IMG/VR virus record: IMGVR_UViG_2882072473_000006
Origin: an uncultured virus (IMG/VR IMGVR_UViG_2882072473_000006)
Taxonomy: Duplodnaviria > Heunggongvirae > Uroviricota > Caudoviricetes
Length of the DNA: 64,000 nt
Strand: one strand, 5' to 3'
Position numbers and translations under genes: made by a program. Below, one piece after another: positions 3,644 through 45,188 of the stretch; position 1 is the stretch's first letter, and each line of letters starts with the position of its first letter. The notes under the pieces were generated by a model. That model did not search any database, was not told the origin of the DNA, and saw only the letters and a list, made by a program, of their open reading frames with translations.

Positions 3644-3670
3644 CGCAAGATTTACAGTGGGTTTTATGGA
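3644..3670 (+). promoter_or_regulatory. Phage motif copy 1
   Basis: CGCAAGATTTACAGTGGGTTTTATGGA. Confidence 0.75.
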
Positions 3671-3680
3671 GGTGTTCTAT

Positions 3681-3881
3681 ATGAAATACATGACGAATGC
3701 ACAAATCGACGAGCTTAATTTGCTTTTGGATAAGCATGGGGCGGCTTTGACAGCATTTTATAACGAAGGAATGAGACAAGGCGCCAAAAATGTGATTCAT
3801 GGTATGATGATTGGCGCGGCGATTATTGCTGGCGTTCAGATCACAAGGGCAATCATCAGAGCACACAAGCAAAAGAACTAA
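3681..3881 (+). CDS. Small hypothetical membrane protein
   Basis: GGAGGTG RBS; followed by hairpin plus U-tract. Confidence 0.75.
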   Translation: MKYMTNAQIDELNLLLDKHGAALTAFYNEGMRQGAKNVIHGMMIGAAIIAGVQITRAIIRAHKQKN

Positions 3882-3945
3882 ATAGGAATTGGGGTCGCTT
3901 AATCAGCGGCTCCTTTTCTTTTTGCCCCTTGCGCCGCCCGCTCTA

Positions 3946-3975
3946 ATCATATATGATAAGTGTACGAATTGTCAA
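3946..3975 (-). promoter_or_regulatory. Sigma-A-type promoter facing the integrase
   Basis: TTGACA-N18-TATGAT on the minus strand. Confidence 0.55.
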
Positions 3976-4020
3976 GCATATTCCTACACAATATTTTTGA
4001 TTAAGATTTGAGGGCTGGAT

Positions 4021-4347
4021 ATGGTGATGAACGAGTGCTCCGCCTGTCCCCGGTGCGGCGGACGGTTGAAATACTACGACAGCGTGCCCAGACTGGTACG
4101 GACGAAAGGGCGGCAAACCTCCAGAGTTCCCATGCGCCGCCTGCGGTGCTCCGGCTGCGGGGCAATCCACCGGGAACTGGGCGGTCTGTTCTTCCCCTAC
4201 AAGCAGTACGAGGCCGAAGTGATATTCGGCGTACTGGAGGGGCTTATCACCTGCGAGACACTGGGGTTCGAGGATTACCCCTGCGAGATGACCATGCTCC
4301 GGTGGCTTTCGCAGAAAGCACAGCTCCTATTATGGAGAAATCCATAA
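4021..4347 (+). CDS. Zinc-finger protein (DUF6431-like)
   Basis: CPRCGG...RRLRCSGCG..HRELG..FFPYKQY. Confidence 0.7.
   Translation: MVMNECSACPRCGGRLKYYDSVPRLVRTKGRQTSRVPMRRLRCSGCGAIHRELGGLFFPYKQYEAEVIFGVLEGLITCETLGFEDYPCEMTMLRWLSQKAQLLLWRNP
4310..4336 (+). promoter_or_regulatory. Phage motif copy 2
   Basis: CGCAGAAAGCACAGCTCCTATTATGGA. Confidence 0.78.
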
Positions 4348-4360
4348 GCGAAAGGAGTAA

Positions 4361-4603
4361 ATGAGCATGAAACTGACACCTGTGGACCAGATACCGAAGA
4401 CGAACGGCTATCACAAGCTGCAAGAGCTGATCGAGGAGTTTACGAACGGCGACGCTAAAATCGTAAAGGTGGAATTTAGCGAGACCGATTATAAATCCCC
4501 GGCGGTCTGCCGGTCTTGTCTGGCCGCGGCCATCAAGCGGTCGAAGCGTCCGGTCAAGGTATGGCGTCGTGGAAATGAGATATTCCTGAGCAGGGATGTT
4601 TGA
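4361..4603 (+). CDS. Small hypothetical protein
   Basis: AAAGGAG RBS; terminator follows. Confidence 0.75.
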   Translation: MSMKLTPVDQIPKTNGYHKLQELIEEFTNGDAKIVKVEFSETDYKSPAVCRSCLAAAIKRSKRPVKVWRRGNEIFLSRDV

Positions 4604-4648
4604 CAAAGGATCGAGCCACCGTAACAGGCGGCTCTTTTCTTTTTCGGA

Positions 4649-4675
4649 CGCAGGAATTGCACAGCCCTTTATGGA
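4649..4675 (+). promoter_or_regulatory. Phage motif copy 3
   Basis: CGCAGGAATTGCACAGCCCTTTATGGA. Confidence 0.78.
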
Positions 4676-4685
4676 GGTGATTTCA

Positions 4686-4904
4686 ATGGACAAAATCAAA
4701 GCACTCAACACCAAAGTCATGGCAAAAGACTTCGGACGGGTAGGCTTGGGCACACTGGCCATTGTAGCCGGAGCATTTCTGTGGGGCAAGTTTTTGTACG
4801 GCAGAGGTGTGCGCGGCTGCCAACGCTGGATGTGCGAGACGTTTCCGGACGAATACGAAAGCATGACGGAAAAGGTCGCTGATATGCTGGAACAGGACCA
4901 TTGA
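4686..4904 (+). CDS. Small membrane protein
   Basis: GGAGGTG RBS; TM-like segment; terminator follows. Confidence 0.75.
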   Translation: MDKIKALNTKVMAKDFGRVGLGTLAIVAGAFLWGKFLYGRGVRGCQRWMCETFPDEYESMTEKVADMLEQDH

Positions 4905-4969
4905 ACAGGCCAAAACAGATTGAGCCGCTCTCGCGGCGGCTCTTTCTTTTGTCTCCGGCGGTTATATTT

Positions 4970-5003
4970 CTAATTTAGATTAGCCCGATTTAACCTAAGT
5001 TAG
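4970..5003. promoter_or_regulatory. Tandem 14-bp palindromic operator-like sites
   Basis: CTAATTTAGATTAG and TTAACCTAAGTTAG; a similar pair lies at 43415-43450. Confidence 0.5.
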
Positions 5004-5014
5004 AAAACGGGCCC

Positions 5015-5041
5015 CGCAGATTTTGCAATTCCTATTATGGA
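5015..5041 (+). promoter_or_regulatory. Phage motif copy 4
   Basis: CGCAGATTTTGCAATTCCTATTATGGA. Confidence 0.78.
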
Positions 5042-5175
5042 AAGGAAACGGATAGATGCTGGTGGAAATCCAGCGGTGAGACACGAAGGCGTGCCGCCAA
5101 GTAATAACTTAATCAAAGATGGCACCCACCGGGCAACGGTTTTCGTTGGGCCGACCCTGAAGTCGTTTCCTTTTC
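5039..5175 (+). ncRNA. Putative structured ncRNA
   Basis: 12-bp closing stem GGAAAGGAAACG/CGTTTCCTTTTC enclosing several hairpins; U-tract after; no RBS-led ORF. Confidence 0.6.
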
Positions 5176-5183
5176 TTTTTTCG

Positions 5184-5210
5184 CGCCGATTCAACAGGGG
5201 CCTTTATGGA
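5184..5210 (+). promoter_or_regulatory. Phage motif copy 5
   Basis: CGCCGATTCAACAGGGGCCTTTATGGA. Confidence 0.75.
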
Positions 5211-5220
5211 GGTGAAGGTT

Positions 5221-5409
5221 ATGAACACCAGGAAAATTCTTAGCGCGATCGGAACATTCGCGGTTGTGGGCGCGGTATCCACGGCAGGCGCGGCACTATG
5301 GACGAAGGTTCTGAACAGGAAGTTTCAAATGGTACAGCTCAAACTGACACACCCGAAGTCAGACAAAATCATATTCGTCGACTTCAAGAAGGCAAAGAGG
5401 GGCCGCTGA
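5221..5409 (+). CDS. Small membrane protein
   Basis: GGAGGTG RBS; N-terminal hydrophobic helix; terminator follows. Confidence 0.75.
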   Translation: MNTRKILSAIGTFAVVGAVSTAGAALWTKVLNRKFQMVQLKLTHPKSDKIIFVDFKKAKRGR

Positions 5410-5436
5410 CGCAGCGGCTCTTCTTTTTTTTTCATC

Positions 5437-5463
5437 CGCACAAAAGGCCGTCTCCTTTATGGA
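5437..5463 (+). promoter_or_regulatory. Phage motif copy 6
   Basis: CGCACAAAAGGCCGTCTCCTTTATGGA. Confidence 0.7.
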
Positions 5464-5491
5464 GACAAAACTTTTTAGGAGGTAATCAAGG

Positions 5492-5689
5492 ATGAACAAG
5501 CAGAAATGGACAGAGAAGCCGGTCACCTGGGGCGGATATCTCAAACTCAGCGGCATTGTGACAGTCATCGGCGCGATTTTCAGCGCGGTGTATATCATTG
5601 CCATGTTTGAGCCGGCCTGGTGGATCGGGATTCGGAAGACGGTTGGAAAGACGTTCAACCATTGGGCCCGGAAAAGGAATCGTTTCTAA
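5492..5689 (+). CDS. Small membrane protein
   Basis: AGGAGG RBS; TM segment; terminator follows. Confidence 0.78.
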   Translation: MNKQKWTEKPVTWGGYLKLSGIVTVIGAIFSAVYIIAMFEPAWWIGIRKTVGKTFNHWARKRNRF

Positions 5690-5802
5690 AGGGCGGGAGC
5701 CGCTGCAACAGGCGGCTCCTTTTCTTTTTCTTTCCACCGAGGTTGTTTTTACGAAAACGGGGCTGCGCCCTTAGAATAGCCGTTGAAAGGAGGCAGACGC
5801 CG

Positions 5803-6054
5803 ATGAATGAACAAGAGTTCCATCCGGGCTCCGTCCCTGTGGCGGTGGTGGCCCGTGTTTATGGAAAAGACGCGTCCTGGGTGAGGGCCGGAATTATCTC
5901 CGGCTGGCTGCCCATCGGCAAGGCGACCCGGAACGGCAATCTGGTGGCCAGCATTGAGGAGATGGATTCCCGGTATGGCCGGATCAATTTCTACATCTCG
6001 CCAAAACGATTGTACGAGGAAACCGGATATTTCTGGAGAGGAGAACGACGATGA
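5803..6054 (+). CDS. Small phage DNA-binding (excisionase/HTH-like) protein
   Basis: AAGGAGG RBS; VARVYGKDASWVRAGI HTH-like segment. Confidence 0.65.
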   Translation: MNEQEFHPGSVPVAVVARVYGKDASWVRAGIISGWLPIGKATRNGNLVASIEEMDSRYGRINFYISPKRLYEETGYFWRGERR

Positions 6055-6473: not shown

Positions 6474-6682
6474 GGTTGCGGGTTGTGGACGTGGCTGTCC
6501 GGCAATGCTACCGGTTCAACTGCCCGAACTGCGGGAGCAGGCTGGAGGCCGACTGCGGCGATCTGGTGGACATCGGCGGAAAGACAAGCCGGTTCTGGTG
6601 CCCGGTCTGCCGGAAGGAGCGGTATGTTCCATGGAGTGCCCTAAGGAAACGGGTTGTGTACGAGGACAAGTCCGCGGAATAG
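6470..6682 (+). CDS. Zinc-ribbon protein
   Basis: CPNCG...CPVC; coupled to upstream gene. Confidence 0.7.
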   Translation: MRLRVVDVAVRQCYRFNCPNCGSRLEADCGDLVDIGGKTSRFWCPVCRKERYVPWSALRKRVVYEDKSAE

Positions 6683-6699
6683 GCAGGCTCCTTTATGGA
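6673..6699 (+). promoter_or_regulatory. Phage motif copy 7
   Basis: CGCGGAATAGGCAGGCTCCTTTATGGA. Confidence 0.75.
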
Positions 6700-6710
6700 G
6701 GTGAAATGCC

Positions 6711-6923: not shown

Positions 6924-6966
6924 GGATTGGGCCTGCGGAAACGCGGGCTCTTTCCTTTTTGTATTT

Positions 6967-6993
6967 CGCAGAAACGGCAGCGGCTATTATGGA
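6967..6993 (+). promoter_or_regulatory. Phage motif copy 8
   Basis: CGCAGAAACGGCAGCGGCTATTATGGA. Confidence 0.78.
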
Positions 6994-7005
6994 GGTGATA
7001 CCATT

Positions 7006-7179: not shown

Positions 7180-7291
7180 GCAGGCCCTTTGCTTTCTATT
7201 TTCCATACGCAGCCGGCCGGAAAGCGTGTTAGAGTGATATCCTGAAAAATTCCCGGGTGGAAAATTTGAGAAAACAGCATTAAAGGAGGAA

Positions 7292-7519
7292 TTGAATTTG
7301 GCGATTATTGCAGCGATCGCGGCGCTTTGCATTGGAATTTTGATTGGCATGTATCTGTTCCAGGATCGTCCGGTCGGCGACCTGCGGGTGGACCATTCCG
7401 ATTTCGCGGACGAAGGCCCTCATTTATATCTTGAGCTGGATACGGATATACGAACCGTTATGCGGAAGAAACGGGTGGTCTTCCGGGTCAAGGTGGAGGA
7501 CTTCCTGCCGCACGAATGA
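7292..7519 (+). CDS. Small membrane-anchored protein
   Basis: AAGGAGG RBS; N-terminal TM segment. Confidence 0.7.
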   Translation: MNLAIIAAIAALCIGILIGMYLFQDRPVGDLRVDHSDFADEGPHLYLELDTDIRTVMRKKRVVFRVKVEDFLPHE

Positions 7520-7535
7520 CATAGGCCTTTATGGA
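7509..7535 (+). promoter_or_regulatory. Phage motif copy 9
   Basis: CGCACGAATGACATAGGCCTTTATGGA. Confidence 0.75.
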
Positions 7536-7546
7536 GGTGTATTGTA

Positions 7547-8048: not shown

Positions 8049-8075
8049 CGCACGAATAACATCGGCTATTATGGA
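8049..8075 (+). promoter_or_regulatory. Phage motif copy 10
   Basis: CGCACGAATAACATCGGCTATTATGGA. Confidence 0.78.
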
Positions 8076-8108
8076 GCCAATTCTGATTTTTGAAAGGAGA
8101 AAAAGCAT

Positions 8109-8610: not shown

Positions 8611-8637
8611 CGCATATTCGGCATGGTGTTTTATGGA
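8611..8637 (+). promoter_or_regulatory. Phage motif copy 11
   Basis: CGCATATTCGGCATGGTGTTTTATGGA. Confidence 0.72.
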
Positions 8638-8665
8638 GAAATCTGAATTTAAGGAGGTTTCGCAA

Positions 8666-9147: not shown

Positions 9148-9174
9148 CGCCAAATTTACAAGGCGTTTTATGAG
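9148..9174 (+). promoter_or_regulatory. Phage motif copy 12
   Basis: CGCCAAATTTACAAGGCGTTTTATGAG. Confidence 0.7.
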
Positions 9175-9242
9175 GAGAGAGCGCTCTTTACCTCAATATC
9201 AGCCGGAGCCGCAAGGCCCGGACGACTTAGGAGGTAATGCAA

Positions 9243-9644: not shown

Positions 9645-10004
9645 ATGCGCTATCACTACGAGAAGCCGCCCATTTATCTTTCCATGTACGGACAGCGCTA
9701 CTGCTGCGACCATCCGGTCTATAACCACTGCACCCTGTTCCTTGTCGGCGAACGGGGCCTGGCGGTGATTCAGCAGCGGTACGACCCGGAGACGAAGCAC
9801 ACCTTCTGGGCCGAGGTAGACGAGTGGCTGACGGACCCATTATATCTGCACCCCCGGTTTCGGGCGTTCTTTGACCGCCGGGCCGGGACGGGTACGGACG
9901 GCCTCTACCCCACCGTGACCATCCGGCAGATCATGTGGGCGCTGAAGATGAAGCCCCTGCCCAAGCAGCCCTGGGAGACGGTCTTCGACCATACGCCGAT
10001 TTGA
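9645..10004 (+). CDS. Hypothetical protein
   Basis: GGAGG RBS; coding-like codon use. Confidence 0.75.
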   Translation: MRYHYEKPPIYLSMYGQRYCCDHPVYNHCTLFLVGERGLAVIQQRYDPETKHTFWAEVDEWLTDPLYLHPRFRAFFDRRAGTGTDGLYPTVTIRQIMWALKMKPLPKQPWETVFDHTPI

Positions 10005-10020
10005 CAACCTCCTTTATGAG
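9994..10020 (+). promoter_or_regulatory. Phage motif copy 13
   Basis: CGCCGATTTGACAACCTCCTTTATGAG. Confidence 0.72.
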
Positions 10021-10052
10021 AAACCAACTGATTTTGAAAGGGGTTGCGGTTT

Positions 10053-10202: not shown

Positions 10203-10241
10203 AGGGAACGGCCCAGACAAGGGCTTTTCCTTTTATTTTTG

Positions 10242-10268
10242 CGCTTATTTCGCAGCTCCTATTACGGA
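10242..10268 (+). promoter_or_regulatory. Phage motif copy 14 (ACG variant)
   Basis: CGCTTATTTCGCAGCTCCTATTACGGA. Confidence 0.68.
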
Positions 10269-10299
10269 GAACGATGCTCGTAAAAGGAGGTAAAGGGGC

Positions 10300-10552: not shown

Positions 10553-10579
10553 CGCAGATTCCGCAGGTTCTATTGTGGA
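10553..10579 (+). promoter_or_regulatory. Phage motif copy 15 (GTG variant)
   Basis: CGCAGATTCCGCAGGTTCTATTGTGGA. Confidence 0.68.
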
Positions 10580-10648
10580 GAGGCATACAGCGAGCTACGA
10601 AGCGAGGGTGGTAGTAGGCAACGCAAGACGGAAACCCACCTGCCTCTC
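10578..10648 (+). ncRNA. Putative small structured RNA
   Basis: GAGAGGCA/TGCCTCTC closing stem plus GGTGG/CCACC; lies between two motif copies with no gene. Confidence 0.5.
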
Positions 10649-10657
10649 TTAGGTTTT

Positions 10658-10684
10658 CGCAGATTTTGCAATTCCTATTATGGA
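10658..10684 (+). promoter_or_regulatory. Phage motif copy 16 (identical to copy 4)
   Basis: CGCAGATTTTGCAATTCCTATTATGGA. Confidence 0.78.
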
Positions 10685-10685
10685 G

Positions 10686-10756
10686 AGGAAGTTAGCTCAA
10701 TGGTAGAGCGCAGGCTGAAATGCCTGAGGCCGCCGGTTCGAGTCCGGCACTTTCTC
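10686..10756 (+). tRNA. tRNA-like RNA (Phe/GAA-like, aberrant anticodon arm, no encoded CCA)
   Basis: Acceptor AGGAAGT/ACTTTCT, D-arm GCTC-AATGGTA-GAGC, T-arm GCCGG-TTCGAGT-CCGGC, anticodon arm CAGGC-TGAAAT-GCCTG. Confidence 0.72.
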
Positions 10757-10804
10757 TTTCGCTTTTGCATGGAGAAAAAAAACAAGTTTGGAAAGGAGTT
10801 TACC

Positions 10805-11368
10805 ATGGAGAAACGGCCGCTGGACACGGAGCTTGAAGTTCTTTGGAGCGAGCACCTCGAAGACGATGTGTTCTCAGTACGCGCTTACAATGTTCTGGCG
10901 CATCGTCTCGGTCTTCGCACGTTAGGGGATATTTTGAATTTGACCCGCGACGACATTGCAAAGGCGAGGGGCGCGGGGAAAAAGACCCTGGACGACATTG
11001 CGAAGCTGGTTCGGTCGTGCGGATACGAACTGAACGGATTCACGGACGCCGGTCCGAACTGCAAAAAGTGCAAACAGAGGGATTTCCTGCGGCCGGCGCA
11101 TCAGCACTTTCTCAAATTGGCAAGGGAGTTCAACCGCTCGTATCATCATCCCAAGGACCGCGCCTTTGTGTTTCCAAACCGGATTTCCGGAGAGACGGGC
11201 TGGGATATTGTAAAGCGGGCCATATTCGCCACCTATAACGTGTCGAGCATTGCCTCTCTGCCAGACGGGGCGCAGGCGAAAATCAATGAATTTGCGATGG
11301 GTCTCACGGATATTCTGTTCCAACAGCTGCGGGACCGGGCAAAAGAATACAAACGGAGCAATATTTGA
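10805..11368 (+). CDS. Protein with N-terminal RNA polymerase alpha-CTD-like domain
   Basis: FSVRAYNVL...GLRTLGDI...RGAGKKTLDDI matches the alpha-CTD consensus LSVRSYNCL..AGI.T..DL....NLGKKSLEEI. Confidence 0.75.
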   Translation: MEKRPLDTELEVLWSEHLEDDVFSVRAYNVLAHRLGLRTLGDILNLTRDDIAKARGAGKKTLDDIAKLVRSCGYELNGFTDAGPNCKKCKQRDFLRPAHQHFLKLAREFNRSYHHPKDRAFVFPNRISGETGWDIVKRAIFATYNVSSIASLPDGAQAKINEFAMGLTDILFQQLRDRAKEYKRSNI

Positions 11369-12661: not shown

Positions 12662-13235
12662 ATGGTTAAGACCTATCTTGATATTCTGAGCGAGCGCGGC
12701 ATCCGCCCCTTCCTGACCGACGAGGCTTTTGAGGAGCTCCAGAAGTTTGACTACAAGAGCCAGTACGCCATTCCCGGCCAGGTAATGCCGGTCTTCAAGC
12801 ACCCCAACCAGCACAAGATCGAGCTGGGCAAGACCACCAATCTGATCGGCGACATGTGCTGGTACGGAGCCAGCGTGGAGGAGCTGGTGCGGTCCATCAA
12901 GTATGGCATGGTGGTGCTCGACGCGGACAAACGCCATTTGGACTGGAAGAAGGCCGCCGAGGACTTCGGTATTCAGGAGCTTCTCAAGGAATACCGCCGG
13001 TTCCGCCGCAAGCCCAAGCTGACAGAGCGGGAAAAAGCTTGTCATTACCGCTTATACCGGCTATGTTCTGGAGGGTACGGCCGGAAAGGTAGTGGATTTC
13101 GTGGAACAGGAGCTGGGTCATTCCATTCAGACGCCGGAGCCGCCCGCAGTCCCGGTTGTTGTGGAGGTGCGCCGGGCTTTGCAGGAGGAATTCTGCGAGA
13201 TCTGCCGGAAGCACCACATCTTTGATTATATTTAA
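12662..13235 (+). pseudogene. Stand-alone paralog of an RNA polymerase segment, with an apparent +1 frameshift at 13032-13036
   Basis: N-terminal part aligns with 46084..48804; the +1 frame after GAAAAAG resembles 34260..34451 and stops at 13235. Confidence 0.6.
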
Positions 13236-13248
13236 GGAGGATACGGAC

Positions 13249-14079
13249 GTGAACGCAAAAACGACCCTGCTCCACGGAGCCGGGAAAGCGGTCAAAAAGG
13301 CGGCGCCGACGATATTGACCGTTGTCAGCGCGGCGGGGGTGGTGGCCACGGCGGCTCTGGCGGTCAGGGCCACACCCAAGGCCCTCAAGCGCATTGAGGC
13401 GGCAAAAGCGGTCAAAAAGGCGGAAAATGGCGGAAATTTGACCCGAATGGAGACGATAGGAGCCTGCTGGCAATGCTATGTACCGGCGGCGGCCACGGGA
13501 ATCGCTGTAATCGGGTGTATTTTCGGAGCAAATGCCCTCAACCGGCGTCAGCAGGCGGCTCTGGTCAGCGCCTACGCCCTGGTCAGCCGGTCCTACAACG
13601 ATTACCAGCGCAAGGTCAAGGAGCTCCACGGCGTAGACGCCCACCGGAGGATCATGGAAGCCTTGGCTGCCGAAAAGAGCAAAAAGCAGCCCATCTACGC
13701 GGGCACCCTGATCGGGTCGTCCTCTCTGGACTTTGAGGACGCCGGCGAGGAAGAGCGGCTATTCTACGACGCCATCTCGGAGCGGTATTTTCAGGCCACC
13801 ATCAGCCAGGTGCTCCAGGCCGAATACCACCTCAACCGGAACTTTGCCCTGGGCGGAGGATTCATTACCCTGAACCAGTTTTACGAGTTCCTGGGCATCG
13901 AGCCGGTACCCGGCGGGGACGAGGTGGGCTGGATGGTTTCGGACGGGCTCTACTGGGTGGACTTTGACCACCAAAAGACCGTGGTAGACGACGGGCTCAA
14001 CGGCGAGGTGGAGTGCTACATCATCGACGCACCCTTCCCGCCGGTAAGCGAGCGTGAATACGAGGACATGGAGCTCTGA
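13249..14079 (+). CDS. DUF6353-like membrane-associated phage protein, paralog 1
   Basis: P.ILT...A.GVV.TA.LAV.ATPKA...Y.PA...LN.FY..LG....GW. Confidence 0.8.
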   Translation: MNAKTTLLHGAGKAVKKAAPTILTVVSAAGVVATAALAVRATPKALKRIEAAKAVKKAENGGNLTRMETIGACWQCYVPAAATGIAVIGCIFGANALNRRQQAALVSAYALVSRSYNDYQRKVKELHGVDAHRRIMEALAAEKSKKQPIYAGTLIGSSSLDFEDAGEEERLFYDAISERYFQATISQVLQAEYHLNRNFALGGGFITLNQFYEFLGIEPVPGGDEVGWMVSDGLYWVDFDHQKTVVDDGLNGEVECYIIDAPFPPVSEREYEDMEL

Positions 14080-14085: not shown

Positions 14086-14112
14086 CGCAGAAATTGCATC
14101 TCCTATTATGGA
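14086..14112 (+). promoter_or_regulatory. Phage motif copy 17
   Basis: CGCAGAAATTGCATCTCCTATTATGGA. Confidence 0.8.
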
Positions 14113-14142
14113 GAATCTATATTTAACAGGAGGTTTGACTTT

Positions 14143-14353: not shown

Positions 14354-14656
14354 ATGAACGAACAGGCGATCCTCTTTCTCATGGAGGTCCTGAACGGCTT
14401 TGAGGAGCCGCCAAGGTCCGACTGGCCCAGGCACGAGGCGGAGGAAGTCAGCTTTTCCCGCTGGGCGGTGGAGGAGCTGCTGCAACAGGTCTGGGGCCAC
14501 CCGTGGACACTGGCCTCTGAGACGGTAGAGCGTTTCGCCGCGAAGCTGGGGCTATACGCCGAGACCTGCGTCACGGACCAGCAGCACCGGATCTTTCGGA
14601 TCGCGGCCGAAACCGTGAGGGGATTCCTCGATGAGATCGAGAAGCTGGAGCGATGA
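14354..14656 (+). CDS. Hypothetical protein
   Basis: AGGAG RBS; ATGA coupling downstream. Confidence 0.65.
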   Translation: MNEQAILFLMEVLNGFEEPPRSDWPRHEAEEVSFSRWAVEELLQQVWGHPWTLASETVERFAAKLGLYAETCVTDQQHRIFRIAAETVRGFLDEIEKLER

Positions 14657-15453
14657 AAACATTGATATTTATGAGAGGAGATGGCGTATTGAACAAACAA
14701 GCAATTTCAAACGCCCTGAAAGCGTTGCAGAAAACCGTGAAAAAGCACAGCCCGGAGATTTTGACGGGCATCGGCATCGCCGGGATGACCGCCGCCGCTG
14801 TGATGGCGGTCAAGGCCACCCCCAAGGCCCTGCGGATGGTGGACGAAAAGGAAATCCGGGACGGAAAGCGCCTGACCACCGGCGAGATCGTCAAGACCAC
14901 CTGGAAATGTTATATTCCCCCGGTCGTCACCGGCGTATGCTCCGCGGCCTGCATCATCGGGGCCAGTTCCATCAGCGCACGGCGCAACGCGGCCCTGGTC
15001 ACGGCCTACACCATTTCGGAGACCGCGTTGAAGGAGTACCGGGACAAGGCGGTTGAGGTGGTCGGCGTGAAGAAGGAGCAGGCCATCCGGGACGCGGTGG
15101 CCAAGGACAAGCTGGAGAAGGCCAATGTCAAAGAGCGGGAATTCATTTCCACCGGACGGGGCGAGACCCCCTGTTTCGACCCGCTGACCAACACCTGCTT
15201 CAAGTCGGACATCGAGAGCCTCCGCCGGGCGGAAAACACGCTGAACAAGCGGATGCGGGACGAGGTGAAGATCACCGTCAATGAGTTTCTGATGGAGATA
15301 GGCCTGGAGCCCTGCGACGACTCTATCGGAGAGACCATGGGGTGGGACATCGACAAGGGCTACATTGAGCTGGACTTCAGCTCCCAGCTGGTGGACGGCG
15401 TCCCTTATCTGGTGCTGGGGCACCGGGTCCCGCCGGTCTATCTGGGCTGGTGA
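14653..15453 (+). CDS. DUF6353-like protein, paralog 2
   Basis: KKHSPEILTGIGIAGM...AVKATPKA; same motifs as paralog 1. Confidence 0.8.
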   Translation: MKTLIFMRGDGVLNKQAISNALKALQKTVKKHSPEILTGIGIAGMTAAAVMAVKATPKALRMVDEKEIRDGKRLTTGEIVKTTWKCYIPPVVTGVCSAACIIGASSISARRNAALVTAYTISETALKEYRDKAVEVVGVKKEQAIRDAVAKDKLEKANVKEREFISTGRGETPCFDPLTNTCFKSDIESLRRAENTLNKRMRDEVKITVNEFLMEIGLEPCDDSIGETMGWDIDKGYIELDFSSQLVDGVPYLVLGHRVPPVYLGW

Positions 15454-15457
15454 CATC

Positions 15458-15484
15458 CGCAGAAATTGCATCTCCTATTATGGA
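15458..15484 (+). promoter_or_regulatory. Phage motif copy 18 (identical to copy 17)
   Basis: CGCAGAAATTGCATCTCCTATTATGGA. Confidence 0.8.
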
Positions 15485-15525
15485 GAACCATCCAATGAAC
15501 CTAACTTTATAAGGAGGAACTTGAC

Positions 15526-17014: not shown

Positions 17015-17528
17015 CGCGGATTCATTTGTAGGCGTCGGCATCTGCATTTTGGGGCTTGTGGGCGTGGGCTACGCCATCGGCGTCCACTCCAAAATGAAGG
17101 TGATGTGCGACCGGCTGGACACCAGCATCGACAACCTGGCCAACAACACCGAAATCGATATTCCCGCAAAGGTCATCGACCAGGCGGTTCAGAAGGCCGT
17201 AGAGCGGGAGTCCTATTCTGCGGTCAAGCGGGCCACGGAGGAGGTCGTGGCCGACGCGAAGCGGGAGATCGAGAGCCGGGTGGGCACGGCGGTAAAGGCC
17301 CAGTATGACGCGATTTCGGACGGTGTGGCAGACCAGATCGCCAAGAACGTCGCCCGGATCGACGAGAGCAAGCTCAAGAAGGAGGTCGTGCAGAAGGCCA
17401 AGGAGCAGATCGCCGAGAAATTCGACGACAAGCTGGACGACCTGCTGGAGGAGTTCAACGGAAATCTCCAGAACGTGGGGAAAATCTATAAATCTATTGC
17501 GAGATCATTTTCTAAGGAGGATATTTGA
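17004..17528 (+). CDS. TM-anchored coiled-coil protein
   Basis: GAGGAGG RBS; N-terminal TM segment. Confidence 0.78.
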   Translation: MRINADSFVGVGICILGLVGVGYAIGVHSKMKVMCDRLDTSIDNLANNTEIDIPAKVIDQAVQKAVERESYSAVKRATEEVVADAKREIESRVGTAVKAQYDAISDGVADQIAKNVARIDESKLKKEVVQKAKEQIAEKFDDKLDDLLEEFNGNLQNVGKIYKSIARSFSKEDI

Positions 17529-17530
17529 CG

Positions 17531-18496
17531 ATGAAAACCAATGAAATCATGAAATCTGTGAGCCTGACCTTCAACAAGGTGGGGTTCCAGCTTCAGAAGA
17601 AGAGCCCTGAAATCCTGGTTGCCGCCGGCGTGGTCGGCGTGGTGGTGAGCGCCGTCATGGCCTGCCAAGCCACTCCCAAGGCCCTCAAGGTGGCAGAGAA
17701 GACCCAGGACGACGTCGAACGGATTCAGAGCGCCGAGGATTCCGGCGTTACCCAGGCCGGAGAGACCTACACCAAGGAGGACGCCCGCGGCGACCGTATG
17801 CAGGTCTACGCCCACACCGGCTTCCAGTACATCAGGCTGTATGCCCCCGCCGTTCTGCTGGGCGCGGCGTCCATCACCTGCATCCTCACCAGCCACAAGC
17901 TCATGAGAAAGCGCAACATGGCGCTGGCGGCGGCCTATGCCACCCTGGACAAACACTTTAAGGATTACCGCGGCCGTGTGCTGGAGCGGTTCGGCGAGCA
18001 GGTGGAGAAGGAGCTGCGCTACAATATCAAGGCCAAGGAGATCGAGACCACGGTGGTGGACGAGAATGGTAAGGAGAAGAAGGTCAAGGAGACGGTGGAC
18101 GTAGCCGCCGAGGGCTGGGACCCCTCCAAGTACAGCCCCTATGCCCGTATCTTTGACGAGGGCCACCCCGCCTACATGAAGGATGCCGAGCAGAACAAAT
18201 TTTACCTGCTGGCCCTTCAGGCCCAGGCCAACGACCGGCTCAAGTCCCGCGGCCACCTGTTCCTCAACGAGGTCTATGAGATGCTGGGCTTCCGCCTGAC
18301 CAAGGCCGGCGCCGTGGTGGGCTGGATCTATGACCCCAGAGAGCCCATGGGGGACAACTTTGTGGACTTCGGCATGTTCGAGGTGTGCCGCGAGAAGGCG
18401 GTGGACTTCGTGAACGGCTACGAGCGGTCCTTTATCCTGGACTTCAACGTGGTGGGCGACATCACCGACGCGCTGGCCACCCACCAGACGCTGTGA
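17531..18496 (+). CDS. DUF6353-like protein, paralog 3
   Basis: KKSPEIL...GHLFLNEVY.MLG...VGW...LDFNV.G. Confidence 0.82.
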   Translation: MKTNEIMKSVSLTFNKVGFQLQKKSPEILVAAGVVGVVVSAVMACQATPKALKVAEKTQDDVERIQSAEDSGVTQAGETYTKEDARGDRMQVYAHTGFQYIRLYAPAVLLGAASITCILTSHKLMRKRNMALAAAYATLDKHFKDYRGRVLERFGEQVEKELRYNIKAKEIETTVVDENGKEKKVKETVDVAAEGWDPSKYSPYARIFDEGHPAYMKDAEQNKFYLLALQAQANDRLKSRGHLFLNEVYEMLGFRLTKAGAVVGWIYDPREPMGDNFVDFGMFEVCREKAVDFVNGYERSFILDFNVVGDITDALATHQTL

Positions 18497-20544: not shown

Positions 20545-20793
20545 ATGAGTAAAAAGGGAAAATTCGTGGATATCTGCACGCTGGAGGACTTGACGGCCCT
20601 GGTAAACCACAACTTCCAGGCCTTTGAGAAGCGGGTGGCCAAGCTGAGCCGTAAAAGCAGCATGTTGACCGTGCTCGCCGTTGCCGCAGTTGTGGGCGTT
20701 TACGCCCTGGCGGCGGAGAACCGGAAGCGGGAGGAACAGGTCTACCAGCTTTCGGTCCGTGTGAAAAAGCTGGAGTATGATAAAGGAGAGTAA
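20545..20793 (+). CDS. Small membrane protein
   Basis: GGAGG RBS; TM segment. Confidence 0.72.
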   Translation: MSKKGKFVDICTLEDLTALVNHNFQAFEKRVAKLSRKSSMLTVLAVAAVVGVYALAAENRKREEQVYQLSVRVKKLEYDKGE

Positions 20794-20801: not shown

Positions 20802-23800
20802 ATGCTGGACTTCTTGATGATTTCAACGCGCAGCGGGAAACGCGGCATCATCGAGATCTATCCCAAGTTTATCATCAAGAAAAGTAGCGACCTCATGATC
20901 AGAGGCGGCGACTTCTATGCAATCTGGATTGACGAACGGGGTATGTGGTCGACTGATGAACAGGACGCGGTCGACTTGATCGACCGTGAGCTGGACCGAT
21001 ACGCAGAAGAAAACCGCACGCGCTTTGACGGCAACATTCGCGTCCTCCATATGTGGGACGCGGAAACTGGCATGATCGACACCTGGCACAAGTATTGCCA
21101 GAAGCAGATGAAAGACCAGTTCCATATGCTCGATGAAAAGCTGATATTCTCCAACACGAAAGTGACCAAGCGCGACTACGCCAGCAAGTCCCTCCCCTAC
21201 CCCCTGGAGCCGGGGGAGACTCCGGCGTGGGAGCGTCTGGTCTCCACATTATATTCTCCCGAGGAGCGGCACAAGATCGAGTGGTGCATCGGGGCTATCG
21301 TTACCGGGGAGTCCAAGAAGCTGCAAAAGTTTCTGGTCTTCTACGGAGCGGTGGGCACCGGAAAGAGCACCATCATCAATGTGATCATGCAGCTCTTCGA
21401 GGGATACCACACCAGCTTCAGCGCCAAGGACCTGGGCTCCTCCAGCAACGCCTTTGCTCTGGAGGCCTTCCGCGCCAATCCGCTGGTGGCCATTCAGCAT
21501 GACGGCGACCTCTCCCGCATCGAGGACAACACCCGCATCAATTCGCTGGTGTCCCACGAGATGATGACTGTCAACGAAAAGTTCCGCTCCGCCTACTCCA
21601 ACCGCTTTAAGACCTTCCTCATCATGGGAACCAACAAGCCGGTCAAGATTACGGACGCGAAATCCGGTGTCATCCGAAGGCTGATCGACGTGACGCCCAC
21701 CGGGGACAAGGTTCCGCCGGACGAGTACCGGAGGCTGACCCGGCAAATCCCCTTTGAGCTGGGCGGCATTGCCTATCACTGTCAGGAGGTCTATCTGGAG
21801 GACCCGGACTACTACAACGATTATATTCCCATCGCCATGATGGGGGCCTCCAATGACTTTTATAACTTCATCGTGGACTCCTATCATGTGTTCAAACGGG
21901 ACGATGGCGTGTCCCTGAAGTCGGCCTGGGAGATGTATAAGGTCTACTGCGAGGACGCCAAGGTGCCCTACCCCGTCTCCCGCATGATATTTAAGGAGGA
22001 GCTGAAGAACTACTTCCGGTGTTACGAGGAGCGGTTCAGCATGGGGGACGGGTCCCGCGTTCGGAACTATTACAGCGGGTTTCGGACGGAAAAATTTGAG
22101 GAACAGGCGCCGGAGGACAAGCCGGTGTCGCCCCCTCACCCCACCATCGACTTTGTGGAGGGGCAGGCTTCGGCGTTTGACAAGGACTGCGCCGACTGCC
22201 CCGCCCAGTATGCAGGCGGAGAAGGCACGCCCCGTAACAAATGGGAGCGTGTCCGGACAAAGCTGTCCGCCCTGGACACCAGCAAGCTGCACTACGTCAA
22301 GCTCCCGGAAAACCACATCGTCATCGACTTTGATATTCCGGACGAGCAGGGCCAGAAGTCCTTTGAGCGGAATCTGGCCGAGGCGAGCAAGTGGCCGGCC
22401 ACTTATGCGGAGGTAAGCAAGAGTGGCTGCGGCATCCACCTGCATTATATTTATTCCGGAGACCCGACGCGGCTCAGCCGGATTTACGACGACCACATCG
22501 AGGTCAAGGTCTTTACCGGCAACAGCTCCCTGCGCCGCAAGCTCTCCAAATGCAACAACCTGCCTATCGCTACGATAAGCTCTGGATTACCGTTGAAAGG
22601 AGAAAACAATGTGGTAAATTCCAAAGTCATTCAAAGCGAAAAAGGGCTTAGAGTTCAGATCAAGCGAAACCTCAATAAGGAAATCCATCCGGCTACTAAG
22701 CCCTCTATCGACTTTATCCACAAGATTCTGACGGACGCCTATGAGAGCGGTATGCCCTACGACGTCACCGATATGCGCAACGCGGTCCTGGCCTTCGCCG
22801 CCAACAGCACCAACCAGGCGGAATACTGCATCAAGCTGGTGAATAAGATGCCCTTCAAATCCGCCGAGGACGGGCAGGGGGTGAAAAACGACGAGGCCAA
22901 GCTGGTCTTTTATGATGTAGAGGTATTCCCCAATCTGTTCCTGGTGAACTGGAAGATCGAAGGCCCCGGTCAAACCGTGGTCCGGATGATCAACCCCAAG
23001 CCCACGGAGATCGAGGAGCTGATGAAGTTCCGTTTGGTGGGGTTCAACTGCCGCCGGTACGACAATCATATGTTGTACGCTCGGCTGATAGGTTACACCA
23101 ACGAGCAGCTCTACAACCTGTCCCAGAAGATCATCAACAGCGAGAAGAAGGCCCGAAGCACCAACTGCTTCTTTGGGGAGGCCTACAACGTCTCTTATAC
23201 GGACGTGTATGACTTCTGCTCGGTCAAGCAGAGCCTGAAGAAATGGGAGATCGAGCTGGGTCTTCATCACCAGGAGCTGGGTCTTCCCTGGGACCAGCCG
23301 GTTCCGGAGGAGATGTGGCAGAAGGTCGCGGAATACTGCGACAACGATGTCATTGCTACCGAGGCCGTCTTTAATGCCCGGAAAGCCGACTTTGTGGCCC
23401 GGGAGATCCTGGCGGACGTGGCCGGGATGACGGTGAATGACACCACCAACTCCCTCACCACCAGAATTATATTTGGCGGAAACAAGCGCCCCCAGGACCA
23501 GTTCAATTACCGGAATATGGGCGACACGACGCAGATCTATGACCCGAACCGGGACCTGCCCTTTACCATGGGAGAACCTGAGTTCGACGAGTTCACCGCC
23601 TTTGACAAAAAGGGACGCCCCATCTTCCCCGGATACAAATTCGAGGGCGGGAAGTCCCTCTATCGCGGTGAGGAGGTTGGCGAGGGCGGCTACGTCTATG
23701 CCGAGCCGGGTATGTACGGCGACATCGCCCTGCTGGACATTGCCTCCATGCACCCCTCCAGCATCATCGCGGAGGAGCTGTTCGGCCCCGAGTACACCAA

Positions 23801-33607: not shown

Positions 33608-33634
33608 CGCAAAAAGTGCAGCTCCTATTATGGA
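33608..33634 (+). promoter_or_regulatory. Phage motif copy 19
   Basis: CGCAAAAAGTGCAGCTCCTATTATGGA. Confidence 0.78.
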
Positions 33635-33650
33635 AGGAGGTTGTTAAGTT

Positions 33651-41450: not shown

Positions 41451-41473
41451 GCTGAATTTGGGAGGAAGACCCG

Positions 41474-41725: not shown

Positions 41726-41749
41726 TATTTTGAAAGGAGAAGCCAATTT

Positions 41750-42124: not shown

Positions 42125-42150
42125 AACCAACGGAATGATGGGAGACAGCT

Positions 42151-42775: not shown

Positions 42776-42909
42776 AGAACATTGAGACCGAGGAGGAACG
42801 GTTCCACAAGCTGCTCCATATGATCTTTGATATTTGCGCTTTGTCGGACTTCGAGATCGAGGGGCGGATCGTTCTTGTGGATAAGCGTTCCGGAAAGGTT
42901 TGGAGGTGA
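42712..42909 (+). CDS. Small hypothetical protein
   Basis: KN.EGY.DPTAY.AL pattern. Confidence 0.65.
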   Translation: MSWNDRKNAEGYSDPTAYQALKNIETEEERFHKLLHMIFDICALSDFEIEGRIVLVDKRSGKVWR

Positions 42910-42914
42910 GTGGA

Positions 42915-43130
42915 ATGGGTCTATCAAGATTGGCGAAGAAATGCCAAGCGTGTCCGTACGTATCCACCTGCGACCATAAGCGAATGGAGGCGCTTGGATA
43001 TTTACCACTGCCGGAAGCAAATGTTGAAGTGAAGGTAGATTTGTCAGCCACACCAACAGCGGAACTGGTTGATCAGTTGAGTCGAGCCGTACAGATTCCA
43101 AAACACGCATTACGTGGAGGTCGAGTATGA
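42915..43130 (+). CDS. Small hypothetical protein
   Basis: GGAGGTG RBS. Confidence 0.62.
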   Translation: MGLSRLAKKCQACPYVSTCDHKRMEALGYLPLPEANVEVKVDLSATPTAELVDQLSRAVQIPKHALRGGRV

Positions 43131-43396
43131 CACTTGAACAGACTTTGGAAACGGTCGCCAAGATACAGAAGGCCTGGGACGCCTTGGCTCTATCGATATC
43201 GGATGCGGCCGAAGCATTTGCAAAGATGTGGGAGGAGGTCTTCTCCAGCCCTGATATTTGGCCCGGACGGAAGTCTGTCCCGCCGAAAAAGTACGGCATG
43301 TCTCTGCTCAAAAAGCGTCCGTACCAGGCGTTTCCGGCTTATCATTACCACCCCATTGCCCCTCGAAACAGGCCTTACCAGCGGCGTTCCTATTGA
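43127..43396 (+). CDS. Hypothetical protein
   Basis: GGAGG RBS; coupled. Confidence 0.65.
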   Translation: MTLEQTLETVAKIQKAWDALALSISDAAEAFAKMWEEVFSSPDIWPGRKSVPPKKYGMSLLKKRPYQAFPAYHYHPIAPRNRPYQRRSY

Positions 43397-43414
43397 GAAT
43401 GAGGCTGGATATTT

Positions 43415-43450
43415 CTAATCTAAGATAGAAAACAGGCTAACTTAGAATAG
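43415..43450. promoter_or_regulatory. Tandem 14-bp palindromic operator-like sites
   Basis: CTAATCTAAGATAG and CTAACTTAGAATAG. Confidence 0.5.
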
Positions 43451-43529
43451 AATTCGTCCGTACACGGCTTGAAAATCTCTGCCCAGATGGTCAAAAGCTG
43501 CTACTATTACTGTTAGTAGCAGGTCATTT

Positions 43530-43815
43530 TGCTGGCCACTTTTGGTCTGTAAAACTGGCCATTTGCCCACTTTGGGTTCGGATTTTGCGAAAATTTGGAG
43601 GTTGGATAGCCGTGTACGGACGGAAAATTGGTGAAAAACTGGCCATTTGCCCACTTTTTGCCCACTTTTATTTCAAAAGTGGCCAGGCTGAAACCCTTGC
43701 GCCCCAAGGGTTTGCGGGTTTTCTGGCCACTTGCCCACTTTTTTTCTTAATTAAATGCGAAAAAAATATTAAAAATTATATATAAGTGGAAGAAAAAAGT
43801 GGCCAACTGGCCAGC
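43530..43815. repeat. Iteron-like repeat cluster, putative phage replication origin
   Basis: Many (CTGG/TTGC)CCACTTT and inverted AAAGTGG(CCA) copies around an AT-rich tract at about 43740-43800; non-coding. Confidence 0.65.
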
Positions 43816-43922
43816 AAGGGCAAAATAGTGAGTTTTGAGGCTGTTTCGAGCCGTTTTCACAAGATGACGTGACTGCAAAGTTCACTCTTCCATTTCACGA
43901 TGCATTGTGATATACTGAATCC

Positions 43923-44074
43923 GCCACACAATCGTATAAAGAATTATTCGGCTACGGAGAACACATCTTGGCAACAAGTGTCTTCTCTCTATACTCATGC
44001 GCCCGTAGCCGGGTAACGAGATTGTGTGGCAACAATGAGAGATGCGCTTTAGTTGCAGAGTGCGTCTCTTCATT
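43923..44074 (+). ncRNA. Structured leader or ncRNA behind an extended -10 (TGATATACT, 43908-43916)
   Basis: GCCACACAATC/GATTGTGTGGC and nested CGGCTACGG/CCGTAGCCG stems, then a further long hairpin. Confidence 0.5.
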
Positions 44075-44114
44075 GGGGCGCACTCTTTTATTTTGCCCAA
44101 AGGAGGGAAGGTTG

Positions 44115-44696
44115 ATGGGAAGATCTAACAAACCGAATCCTAATATTGGCGGGAAGCTCGGACTTGTCGCCGGAATCGTTAGTGCTGTGACTCCAGTTGC
44201 GATTGAGTTTATAGACCGAATCCCCAGAAAAGACGAAACGGAGCCCTCTGAAGAATTGATATCCATGCCGGAGCTCTGTTCCAAAAAGTTCCCTTTGAAA
44301 CTGGACGAAGCTAAAGAACTTATAGAGGGCCACGGTCTGAAAGCGCTGCCTATCGAAGTTCGCATCAGAGATGCGCATGTTAGATACAAGGATTGTTTTG
44401 ACCTTCAGGTCGTTGCCTGCAATAAAAAGGCCAACTCAAAACTTAAGCCTGGAGAGGTTGTTATTATCCAGTATGTGACTCGTGAGGTAATCGATGAGAG
44501 TCTACGGATATTTGAAGAAGCTGAGCGGCAAAAAGCCACCTTGAAGCAAGAAAGAGCCGATAGGCGGGCCGAGAAATGGGAGCACATAAAAACCCATGCT
44601 GGTGATACTGCCGTCAAAGCAAAGGCCGGCGTTGAGAAGATCATTCGTCGCGACAACAAAAAGAAAGAGCTTGACAAGGAGGATTCTTATGAGTAG
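44115..44696 (+). CDS. Membrane-anchored protein, PASTA-like domain possible
   Basis: AAGGAGG RBS; N-terminal hydrophobic segment; MPEL....LDEAK.L....GL. Confidence 0.68.
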   Translation: MGRSNKPNPNIGGKLGLVAGIVSAVTPVAIEFIDRIPRKDETEPSEELISMPELCSKKFPLKLDEAKELIEGHGLKALPIEVRIRDAHVRYKDCFDLQVVACNKKANSKLKPGEVVIIQYVTREVIDESLRIFEEAERQKATLKQERADRRAEKWEHIKTHAGDTAVKAKAGVEKIIRRDNKKKELDKEDSYE

Positions 44697-44808
44697 TGGA
44701 AAGAAACGCAGCGGCGGCGGATTGCTGCTGGACCTTATCCTGACCATCTGCACGGGAGGTCTTTGGCTGATCTGGATTCTGATTCGGTATCTGCGGAACA
44801 ACAGCTGA
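44689..44808 (+). CDS. 39-aa membrane peptide
   Basis: AGGAGG RBS; LILTICTGGLWLIW; terminator follows. Confidence 0.68.
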   Translation: MSSGKKRSGGGLLLDLILTICTGGLWLIWILIRYLRNNS

Positions 44809-44874
44809 TGGAAAACAAATTGATATTCTGCGTTTAGCCGAGGTGCCTACGGGTGTCTCGGCTGTTTTTGTTTT

Positions 44875-44901
44875 CGCAGGAAAAACCGTCGCCTTTATGA
44901 G
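44875..44901 (+). promoter_or_regulatory. Phage motif copy 20
   Basis: CGCAGGAAAAACCGTCGCCTTTATGAG. Confidence 0.68.
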
Positions 44902-44912
44902 GAGGCGATGTT

Positions 44913-45092
44913 ATGAAACCGAACATGAATGACTCGACCCGACTACTGATAACGTTTACCACTTCGATGGCGGCGGCGATTGGATCATGCGCCGGAGCCA
45001 CGATCTGGCAATCGTTTGGCAAACCAAAGGTCGAGGAGATTGCCGAGAAGAATAGCAAGCCAAAACGGAAAATAGGATTTAGTATCGATTAA
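44913..45092 (+). CDS. 59-aa membrane protein
   Basis: GAGGAGG RBS; GCGGCTC-type terminator follows. Confidence 0.68.
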   Translation: MKPNMNDSTRLLITFTTSMAAAIGSCAGATIWQSFGKPKVEEIAEKNSKPKRKIGFSID

Positions 45093-45161
45093 AGATTAGA
45101 GCCGCCAGCCGCGGCTCTTTTCTTTTTGCCCAAATTGATATTTTAAGGCTGTTTTTCTTTC

Positions 45162-45188
45162 CGCGAAAAAAACAGACTCTTTTATGGA
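45162..45188 (+). promoter_or_regulatory. Phage motif copy 21, heading the nuclease-RNAP operon
   Basis: CGCGAAAAAAACAGACTCTTTTATGGA. Confidence 0.75.

Follow-up and report, generated by a model that had tools for sequence, protein, structure and literature searches.

What recognises a short DNA element that recurs on one strand of a prophage, always in the same direction as the genes that it precedes? This question is raised by a 64,000-nucleotide stretch of DNA (the window) from an uncultured virus of the Caudoviricetes (IMG/VR record IMGVR_UViG_2882072473_000006), which is the prophage of a gut bacterium and in which an integrase gene is followed by about 110 genes on the + strand. The element is 28 bp long and present in 21 copies, one of which heads the operon encoding a 906-aa protein. 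We suggest, with good though not complete confidence and on the strength of sequence comparisons, that the element serves as promoter for the RNA polymerase (RNAP) that the prophage itself encodes, i.e. for this 906-aa protein. The polymerase would bind the element without a sigma factor, probably by means of its helix-turn-helix (HTH) modules, melt a TATAAT-like block and start RNA at the adjoining G (position 25).

The initial annotation of the locus listed 21 starts of the element, and the motif is found at all 21 of these positions, all on the + strand. The column counts agree with the consensus proposed there: C1, G2 and C3 are present in 21/21 copies, as are R11 and C12; position 13 is A in 19 copies and C in two; position 18 is C in 18 and G in three; T21, T22 and G25 are again invariant (21/21), and A23 and T24 occur in 20/21 copies each. 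The variants of the ATG reported earlier are also present (ACG at 10242 and GTG at 10553), and the CGC, CA and ATG blocks do follow each other at 11-bp intervals. The element consists of CGC (positions 1-3), TTnACA/GCA (8-13) and a TATAAT-like block (19-24) one helical turn apart, giving an overall architecture of CGC, TTnACA, 5 bp, the TATAAT-like block and a purine-rich start.

The pattern CGCNNRWWNNRCMNNNNSYWTTRYGRRR with at most one mismatch finds precisely the 21 sites in the window, all on the + strand and none on the - strand (0.04 expected), and 0/100 dinucleotide shuffles attain 21 matches. A position weight matrix (PWM) built from the sites, which is circular for these sites and informative on the absence of further copies, scores the 21 copies at 27.4-45.6 bits and no other position on either strand at 10 bits or more. 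With a pooled PWM, in which five phages (see below) have equal weight, there are 21 matches on the + strand and none on the - strand at ≥14 bits, plus three weak + strand matches of 10-13 bits at 20758, 36255 and 59935. The earlier remark that the virion genes lack the element holds in that no copy of ≥14 bits lies downstream of 45162, and has to be qualified for 59935-59966 (+), where a 13.2-bit match to the pooled PWM stands directly before the major tail gene as the sole candidate copy in the virion module.

Eighteen copies lie within the small early-gene cluster adjoining the integrase gene and the other three at 33608, 44875 and 45162. Many stand directly 3' of a terminator hairpin or T-run and 5' of genes or RNA genes. 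The copies, together with the candidate RNAs and the operon that they precede, are as follows:

3644..3671, + strand: motif copy; start codon 13 nt past G25, the motif GGAGG being the ribosome-binding site
4310..4337, + strand: motif copy
4649..4676, + strand: motif copy; start codon 13 nt past G25
5015..5042, + strand: motif copy; precedes a candidate RNA of ~137 nt
5039..5175, + strand: candidate non-coding RNA; 13-bp terminal stem from motif position 25, then a T-run; z -2.0
5184..5211, + strand: motif copy; start codon 13 nt past G25
5437..5464, + strand: motif copy; directly 3' of the terminator at 5394-5426
6673..6700, + strand: motif copy; start codon 14 nt past G25
6967..6994, + strand: motif copy; 3' of the terminator at 6929-6950; start codon 15 nt past G25
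7509..7536, + strand: motif copy; start codon 14 nt past G25
8049..8076, + strand: motif copy
8611..8638, + strand: motif copy
9148..9175, + strand: motif copy, the weakest (27.4 bits)
9994..10021, + strand: motif copy
10242..10269, + strand: motif copy, ACG variant; 3' of the terminator at 10210-10225
10553..10580, + strand: motif copy, GTG variant; precedes a candidate RNA of ~73 nt
10577..10649, + strand: candidate non-coding RNA; 9-bp terminal stem from G25; z -0.8, weak
10658..10685, + strand: motif copy; precedes the tRNA
10685..10757, + strand: tRNA with an unusual anticodon loop; begins 4-5 nt past the TATTAT block
14086..14113, + strand: motif copy
15458..15485, + strand: motif copy; all 28 nt the same as in the copy at 14086
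33608..33635, + strand: motif copy in the middle region
44875..44902, + strand: motif copy; 3' of the terminator at 44835-44864; start codon 14 nt past G25; just upstream of the polymerase operon
45162..45189, + strand: motif copy; 3' of the terminator at 45098-45118; heads the endonuclease-exonuclease-polymerase operon
45201..45554, + strand: endonuclease gene, first in the operon (phrog_93)
45526..46080, + strand: exonuclease gene (phrog_3953, DUF2800/PD-(D/E)XK)
46084..48804, + strand: gene for the 906-aa RNA polymerase; two-barrel; HTH motifs at residues 47, 90 and 883; conserved N-terminal peptide

The 906-aa protein is, by its modelled fold and its conserved residues, a single-chain two-barrel RNA polymerase of the YonO/QDE-1-like kind, with catalysis predicted. 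It matches phrog_4291 ('RNA-dependent RNA polymerase') over its full length (residues 4-905; E 0, 1207 bits), and Pfam recognises HTH families only (residues 867-906 and ~40-114). In an alignment of 84 relatives S515, G516, A517, D518, D520, G521 and D522 are invariant and F519 nearly so; the window polymerase reads SGADFDGD, the DxDGD catalytic metal-binding loop of cellular RNA polymerases (NADFDGD in beta'). An AlphaFold2 model (pLDDT 84.7, pTM 0.73) has QDE-1 as its best Foldseek match (7y7p_A, E 2e-9, probability 1.00), and further matches are Thermus phage P32 gp64, P74 gp62, plant RDR2, P23-45 gp96 and the largest subunits of cellular RNAPs, those related to P23-45 being 8f72_B and 8f5m_B (E 3-5e-7) and 8h2m (E 2.6e-4). 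A T7-type polymerase was rejected, given that there is no Pfam RNA_pol match at E ≤0.01 and that the fold is two-barrel. Three HTH signatures of the form G-x-S/T-x-x-E-I-A start at residues 47, 90 and 883, i.e. two are N-terminal and one is C-terminal. Neither a separate sigma factor nor a CI-like repressor was recognised among the open reading frames (ORFs) scanned (82 against PHROGs and 46 against Pfam, from a gene set that follows a longest-ORF rule and is crude in that respect).

The family is large: 2520 clusters at 50% identity have E ≤0.001 and 923 have E ≤1e-30, and tblastn finds homologues in 251 phage records (Arthrobacter, Gordonia, Streptomyces, Lactococcus, Curtobacterium, Rhodococcus, Microbacterium and Faecalibacterium phages). 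The window polymerase is 55% identical to gp55 of phage FP_oengus and 37-50% identical to the homologues in Arthrobacter, Streptomyces, Gordonia and Lactococcus phages. Within the window, a 187-aa early protein (12662-13225, +) is a stand-alone paralogue of polymerase residues 540-632 (34% identity, E 3e-16), a helical region just past the catalytic loop, and keeps its conserved G, N, D, K and H. This paralogue is also present in genomes G001 and G053 and may regulate the polymerase or act as its decoy.

The initial annotation placed the start of transcription just past the ATG, and this agrees with two kinds of landmark. In 9/21 copies the start codon lies 13-15 nt past G25 and the sole ribosome-binding site is the motif GGAGG at positions 25-29; because this GGAGG is used as the ribosome-binding site, transcription would have to start at or before G25. 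The tRNAs give a similar limit. The tRNA in the window is called at 10685-10757 by ARAGORN and at 10686-10756 by Rfam (58.5 bits), and the distance from the TATAAT-like block to the tRNA 5' end is 4-5 nt in the window, 2 nt in FP_oengus, and 2 and 6 nt in two viral loci (L103 and L093, respectively), which hold the only two tRNAs among 161 sites in a motif scan of viral contigs. Similarly, the RNAs after 5015 and 10553 and the tRNA precursor have terminal stems that run from G25 or G26 to just before the T-run, with modest z-scores for the whole folds (-2.0, -0.8 and -2.3, respectively). Of the three copies reported earlier to precede non-coding RNAs, the copy at 10658 clearly precedes a tRNA, as both programs agree; the other two RNAs have stems from position 25 and weak folds, and the candidate at 5039..5175 has no match in Rfam. 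In total, we infer that transcription starts at or just before G25. With RNA starting at position 25, many early mRNAs would begin right at the ribosome-binding site, and the tRNA and small RNAs would be nearly leaderless.

If the element is read by the 906-aa polymerase, the two should travel together, and they do so at several distances. In G001, the nearest genome (3.1 Mb, 98% complete, with a near-identical prophage), a scan of prophage versus host chromosome as proposed in the initial annotation places 20/20 pattern matches inside the prophage, within 41.5 kb of one contig and on one strand, and a reversed-pattern control gives 0. FP_oengus, at 55% identity, has at least 14 + strand copies of GACGCGAAAAATnCA-N5-CTTTATGGARG. 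The corresponding elements are CGCGTAAATTACA-nGGGC-TATAAT in Arthrobacter phage Circum, CACATGTTTTACA-N4-C-TATAGTAGAAAG in Lactococcus phage 1706 and CGCAAGTTTTACA-N4-C-TATAGTGAGACCCC in Streptomyces phage Scap1. The five genomes have the same columns, with CGC at 1-3, ACA at 11-13 and a TATAAT-like block at 19-24, and the pooled PWM at ≥12 bits finds 22, 15, 13, 9 and 7 matches on their + strands and 0 on their - strands. In all five the copies cluster in a small-gene region after the structural and lysis genes, and a copy stands before the endonuclease-exonuclease-polymerase operon in the window (45162), FP_oengus (27684), Circum (L003 46054) and Scap1 (L004 38772).

Viral loci fetched by alignment to the polymerase extend this pattern. 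Among the best 80 of 451 such loci (52-100% identity, some of them near-duplicates), 70/70 of those with at least 1500 nt available upstream have a + strand match no more than 2500 nt upstream of the polymerase gene, mostly at ~900-1000 nt, and all 80 loci together have 171 + and 18 - matches. A survey of 112 genomes of the genus of G001 found a full-length polymerase gene in three, with 20, 19 and 9 pattern matches; four other genomes have 2-6 matches and seven have single matches, about the rate of a control pattern (six singles).

Combining these data, we suggest that (i) the 18 copies next to the integrase gene would drive the small early-gene cluster, (ii) the copy at 45162, since it heads the polymerase operon, would let the enzyme boost its own synthesis, and (iii), more speculatively, the three HTH modules would contact the three blocks 11 bp apart on one face of the DNA. 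The earlier proposal of a dedicated polymerase-promoter pair is supported by every computational test run, and that of positive feedback by the motif upstream of the polymerase operon in 70/70 related loci.

Several observations weigh against this model. Given the near-duplicates among the best 80 of 451 loci, the 70/70 count overstates the independence of the cases. The Foldseek TM-scores are low (~0.3), although the probability is 1.0. The reading of three blocks by HTH modules is pure conjecture. The DNA polymerase, exonuclease and small proteins of the same phage group co-occur with the motif equally well; the proposed test of co-occurrence is thus positive in that the motif accompanies the polymerase in four distant phages and at 70/70 loci, and falls short in that other signature genes behave alike. 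Finally, three genomes in the genus survey (G038, G039 and G049) hold 3-6 copies without a full polymerase gene. These look like effects of assembly or decay: the motif cluster of G038 stops ~500 nt before a contig end and the genome has no DNA polymerase; G049 is in 540 contigs, with a DNA polymerase fragment on a different contig; and G039 is a deleted remnant with polymerase residues 1-74 only and a DNA polymerase in broken pieces. No intact element with the motif and without the enzyme was found in the 112 genomes. In the remnant itself (L087; G039:C51:50000-68000), the distance between an early-type motif and the motif of the polymerase operon is ~7 kb, versus ~41 kb in the window; the first 74 residues of the polymerase are fused into a 477-aa frame, and the DNA polymerase is fragmented and has a stop codon.

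Could the host RNA polymerase read the motif instead? In that case the TATAAT-like block would serve as a -10 hexamer, a phage protein on CGC/ACA would replace the -35 and the 906-aa protein would be an activator or unrelated, on the model of the T4 MotA/AsiA middle promoters, in which a phage factor acts in place of -35 recognition. The motif and sigma-70 promoters do share TTGACA-like and TATAAT-like hexamers, with positions 19-24 reading TATAAT in Circum and TATAGT in 1706 and Scap1; most actinophage records annotate the 906-aa homologue merely as an HTH DNA-binding protein, and an early protein at 10700-11368 has an alpha-CTD-like domain. Despite its look the motif does not have the geometry of a sigma-70 promoter, because its hexamers are 5 bp apart and not 16-18, and because a sigma-70-type start ~7 nt past the -10, as opposed to the 1-2 nt suggested here, would lie inside the tRNAs, which begin 2-6 nt past the block, and would lose the ribosome-binding site at 25-29 that 9/21 genes use. 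The earlier description as a non-sigma70 element is borne out by this spacing and start position. Given also that the 906-aa protein has the catalytic SGADFDGD and the two-barrel polymerase fold and that no sigma factor gene was recognised in the ORF set scanned, we regard reading by the host enzyme as unlikely. Two other promoter types were tried and rejected. Sigma-54 promoters have an invariant GG at -24 and a GC at -12, ~10 bp apart; the motif has CGC invariant (21/21) at 1-3, no conserved GG and a GCA-to-GCA distance of 9. The hairpin promoters of the N4 virion RNAP are inverted repeats maintained by compensating changes; in the motif, pairing at the four variable pairs around TATTAT is no higher than in shuffles.

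A site that binds protein without being a promoter, either a set of operators that keep early genes off in the lysogen or a site with a role in replication, recombination or packaging, is a still weaker candidate, to which we give little credence. Three blocks one helical turn apart are what one would expect of HTH binding on one face, a prophage must silence its early genes, and no CI-like repressor was recognised in the ORFs scanned. Against such a site speak the strict orientation on one strand, the same as the gene direction, the position of copies 3' of a terminator and 5' of the gene or RNA gene that follows, the 5' stems of the RNAs and the tRNA starts in register with position 25, and the presence of the motif in the strictly lytic phages Circum, Scap1 and 1706. 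Least of all do we expect that the motif works at the RNA level, where it would either be a processing site or form a hairpin (CUCC-UAUUAU-GGAG) hiding the ribosome-binding site. Several copies do have bases before TATTAT that are complementary to GGAG (e.g. 14099-14114 and 5450-5466); however, there is no covariation, the pairs 17-26, 16-27, 15-28 and 14-29 not being above shuffles (P 0.06-0.79), the 5' half of the motif lies directly 3' of terminator T-runs, the motif also stands before the tRNA and untranslated RNAs, and in 12/21 copies GGAG is not the ribosome-binding site used.

A promoter of the phage's own polymerase raises the question of where the first enzyme comes from. If the polymerase gene, which has a copy of the motif upstream in 70/70 loci and also in lytic relatives, depends on the promoter of its own product, the first polymerase molecules must come from host read-through or from the virion. 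It is possible, though we would not count on it, that the polymerase is packed in the virion and injected with the DNA, so that the 18 early promoters would fire without host transcription. In this scheme the N-terminal peptide DiLmHYGvkRrSGRYPWGSG would be a capsid-loading signal common to variable DUF7211 'cargo' proteins that are encoded among the terminase and portal genes, recognition of the three promoter blocks would fall to the three HTH modules, the early genes of the lysogen would be silent simply from absence of the polymerase, and the polymerase's promoter before its own operon would make induction an all-or-none switch.

Several findings are suggestive of delivery in the virion. 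The phage 1706 homologue, orf75, is labelled 'structural protein' in GenBank, and the polymerase gene opens the late module, with the packaging and head genes directly downstream. The N-terminal 35 residues of the polymerase are poorly modelled yet conserved, with H11, G13, S18, G19 and R20 invariant in the 84 relatives, and the peptide can be identified in each of the five phages (E 5e-21 to 6e-12). Its sole Pfam match is to DUF7211 (E 0.0014, 18.4 bits, under the 27-bit cut-off), and a profile-profile comparison of the N-terminal alignments of the polymerase and the DUF7211 proteins gives a probability of 73% (E 3e-5, 13 columns). Four proteins headed by DUF7211 are encoded around the terminase gene:

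51089-51670, + strand: DUF7211-headed protein
51682-52566, + strand: DUF7211-headed protein
54352-54909, + strand: DUF7211-headed protein
54926-55807, + strand: DUF7211-headed protein

These share the N-terminal sequence LxHYGIKGMKWGVRRYQN.DG and differ in their C-terminal parts, and a hidden Markov model of the four N-termini has 100 matches in 45/85 sequences scanned. The DUF7211 proteins look like a family of capsid-loaded cargo proteins; a literature search found no mention of DUF7211. The relatives have 2-5 DUF7211-type genes each. In one DUF7211 protein of the window, the C-terminal part has a weak match to a toxin domain of the papain-fold glutamine deamidase type (E 1e-4, just under the cut-off).

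The remaining organisation of the window is that of a temperate phage. After the polymerase operon come genes for the terminase, portal, a capsid-protease fusion and the tail (PHROGs/Pfam), and on the other side lie:

1-1325, - strand: IS66-family transposase and HTH partner, at the left edge, immediately beyond the prophage's integrase end
2194-3426, - strand: tyrosine integrase
3.6-16 kb, + strand: small-gene cluster, products of no assigned function
20802-24950: primase-polymerase, 1382 aa, among replication and nucleotide-metabolism genes

A link of induction to LexA was considered and dropped: the LexA-box pattern GAACNNNNGTTC has two matches in the window versus 0.86 expected, neither of them close to the polymerase operon.

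Other observations concern single regions of the prophage. Three paralogous genes of the DUF6353 / phrog_2152 type lie on the + strand in the early-to-middle region (13156-14079, 14653-15453 and 17525-18496), and the identical 28-nt copies at 14086 and 15458 suggest a recent local duplication. The anticodon loop of the phage tRNA is abnormal: ARAGORN reports a 4-base anticodon in the window (10685-10757) and a 2-base anticodon in FP_oengus (L001 2935-3006). An RtcB-type RNA ligase is also encoded by the phage (37424-38626), and the odd tRNA and the ligase could be a tRNA decoy or a repair answer to host anticodon nucleases. Beside the tRNA, the 222-aa protein at 10700-11368 (+) owes its assignment as alpha-CTD-like to Pfam RNA_pol_A_CTD (E 7.7e-9).

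A second strand-exclusive motif, W-T-K-ATATTT, occurs 37 times on the + strand and 0 times on the - strand of the window (9626-45333); the bare hexamer ATATTT has 76 + and 3 - occurrences, and in the 80 related viral loci the longer motif occurs 511 times on + versus 48 on -. It is limited to the middle (replication) region, and its 25 intragenic copies are spread over all three frames. No more than 30 nt separate 11/37 copies from a called start downstream, versus 6% at random positions, and the motif often contains the TGA stop of the upstream gene and adjoins the ribosome-binding site that follows. This motif may represent a second class of promoter or else a signal at the RNA level.

The pairing of a sharply defined 28-bp candidate promoter, conserved across phyla, with an enzyme that contains its own DNA-binding modules would apply to a large family whose hosts include Faecalibacterium-type gut bacteria, Lactococcus, Arthrobacter, Streptomyces, Gordonia and Rhodococcus. 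If our model is correct, it would explain both how these phages express early genes without relying on the host and what keeps such genes silent in a temperate member, and would provide an orthogonal expression system, compact in size, for use in Gram-positive hosts. One protein and one short DNA are enough for a direct test of whether a two-barrel polymerase recognises promoters without a sigma factor. The model has a familiar parallel in T7/SP6-type pairs, in which one polypeptide reads a promoter of ~25 bp that abuts the start and initiates with a purine. The window system would work alike, with a single polypeptide and a start-abutting promoter; the enzymes are unrelated, that of the window having a two-barrel fold.

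The protein family itself has already been predicted in print. Koert et al. (bioRxiv 10.1101/842583) described the family of 1706, FP_oengus and the actinophages as a YonO/crAss-like polymerase with HTH domains at both ends, and the window polymerase, with its DxDGD and HTH motifs at both ends, belongs to the same family. That text is confined to the prediction of the enzyme: the word 'promoter' occurs 0 times in it, and the promoter set, the spacing, the constraint on the start and the self-promoter are absent. The word is likewise found 0 times in an Arthrobacter phage paper (PMC5513430). A search for a published promoter of the family, which did not cover the original description of phage 1706, found none, the motif strings matching unrelated primers only. 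The lead on virion delivery of the polymerase is new here.

Two better-studied systems frame the comparison. Thermus phage P23-45 has a virion RNAP, gp96, and a non-virion RNAP, gp64 (Chaban et al. 2024; PMC10770324). According to that paper, the virion enzyme forms a fusion with the tape measure protein and transcribes the first genes, including that of the second polymerase, and the promoters, one with an AT-rich and one with a GC-rich motif, were mapped by ONT-cappable-seq and ChIP-seq. Like the window enzyme, both are single-chain RNAPs of the two-barrel kind encoded by a phage, and each has a conserved promoter motif to itself; the term 'helix-turn-helix' has 0 occurrences in that paper, and our comparison of the P23-45 RNAPs with the window polymerase found no relation at the sequence level. 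YonO of the Bacillus prophage SPbeta (Forrest et al. 2017; PMC5467207), which transcribes phage genes, resembles the window enzyme by description, both being single-chain two-barrel RNAPs of Firmicutes prophages. In that report one YonO start site was mapped, the promoter sequence and the need for other factors were left undetermined, and how YonO-like single-chain RNAPs find promoters was left open. In the prophage analysed here, the candidate promoter of such an enzyme is a defined element with 21 copies, most of them at early genes.

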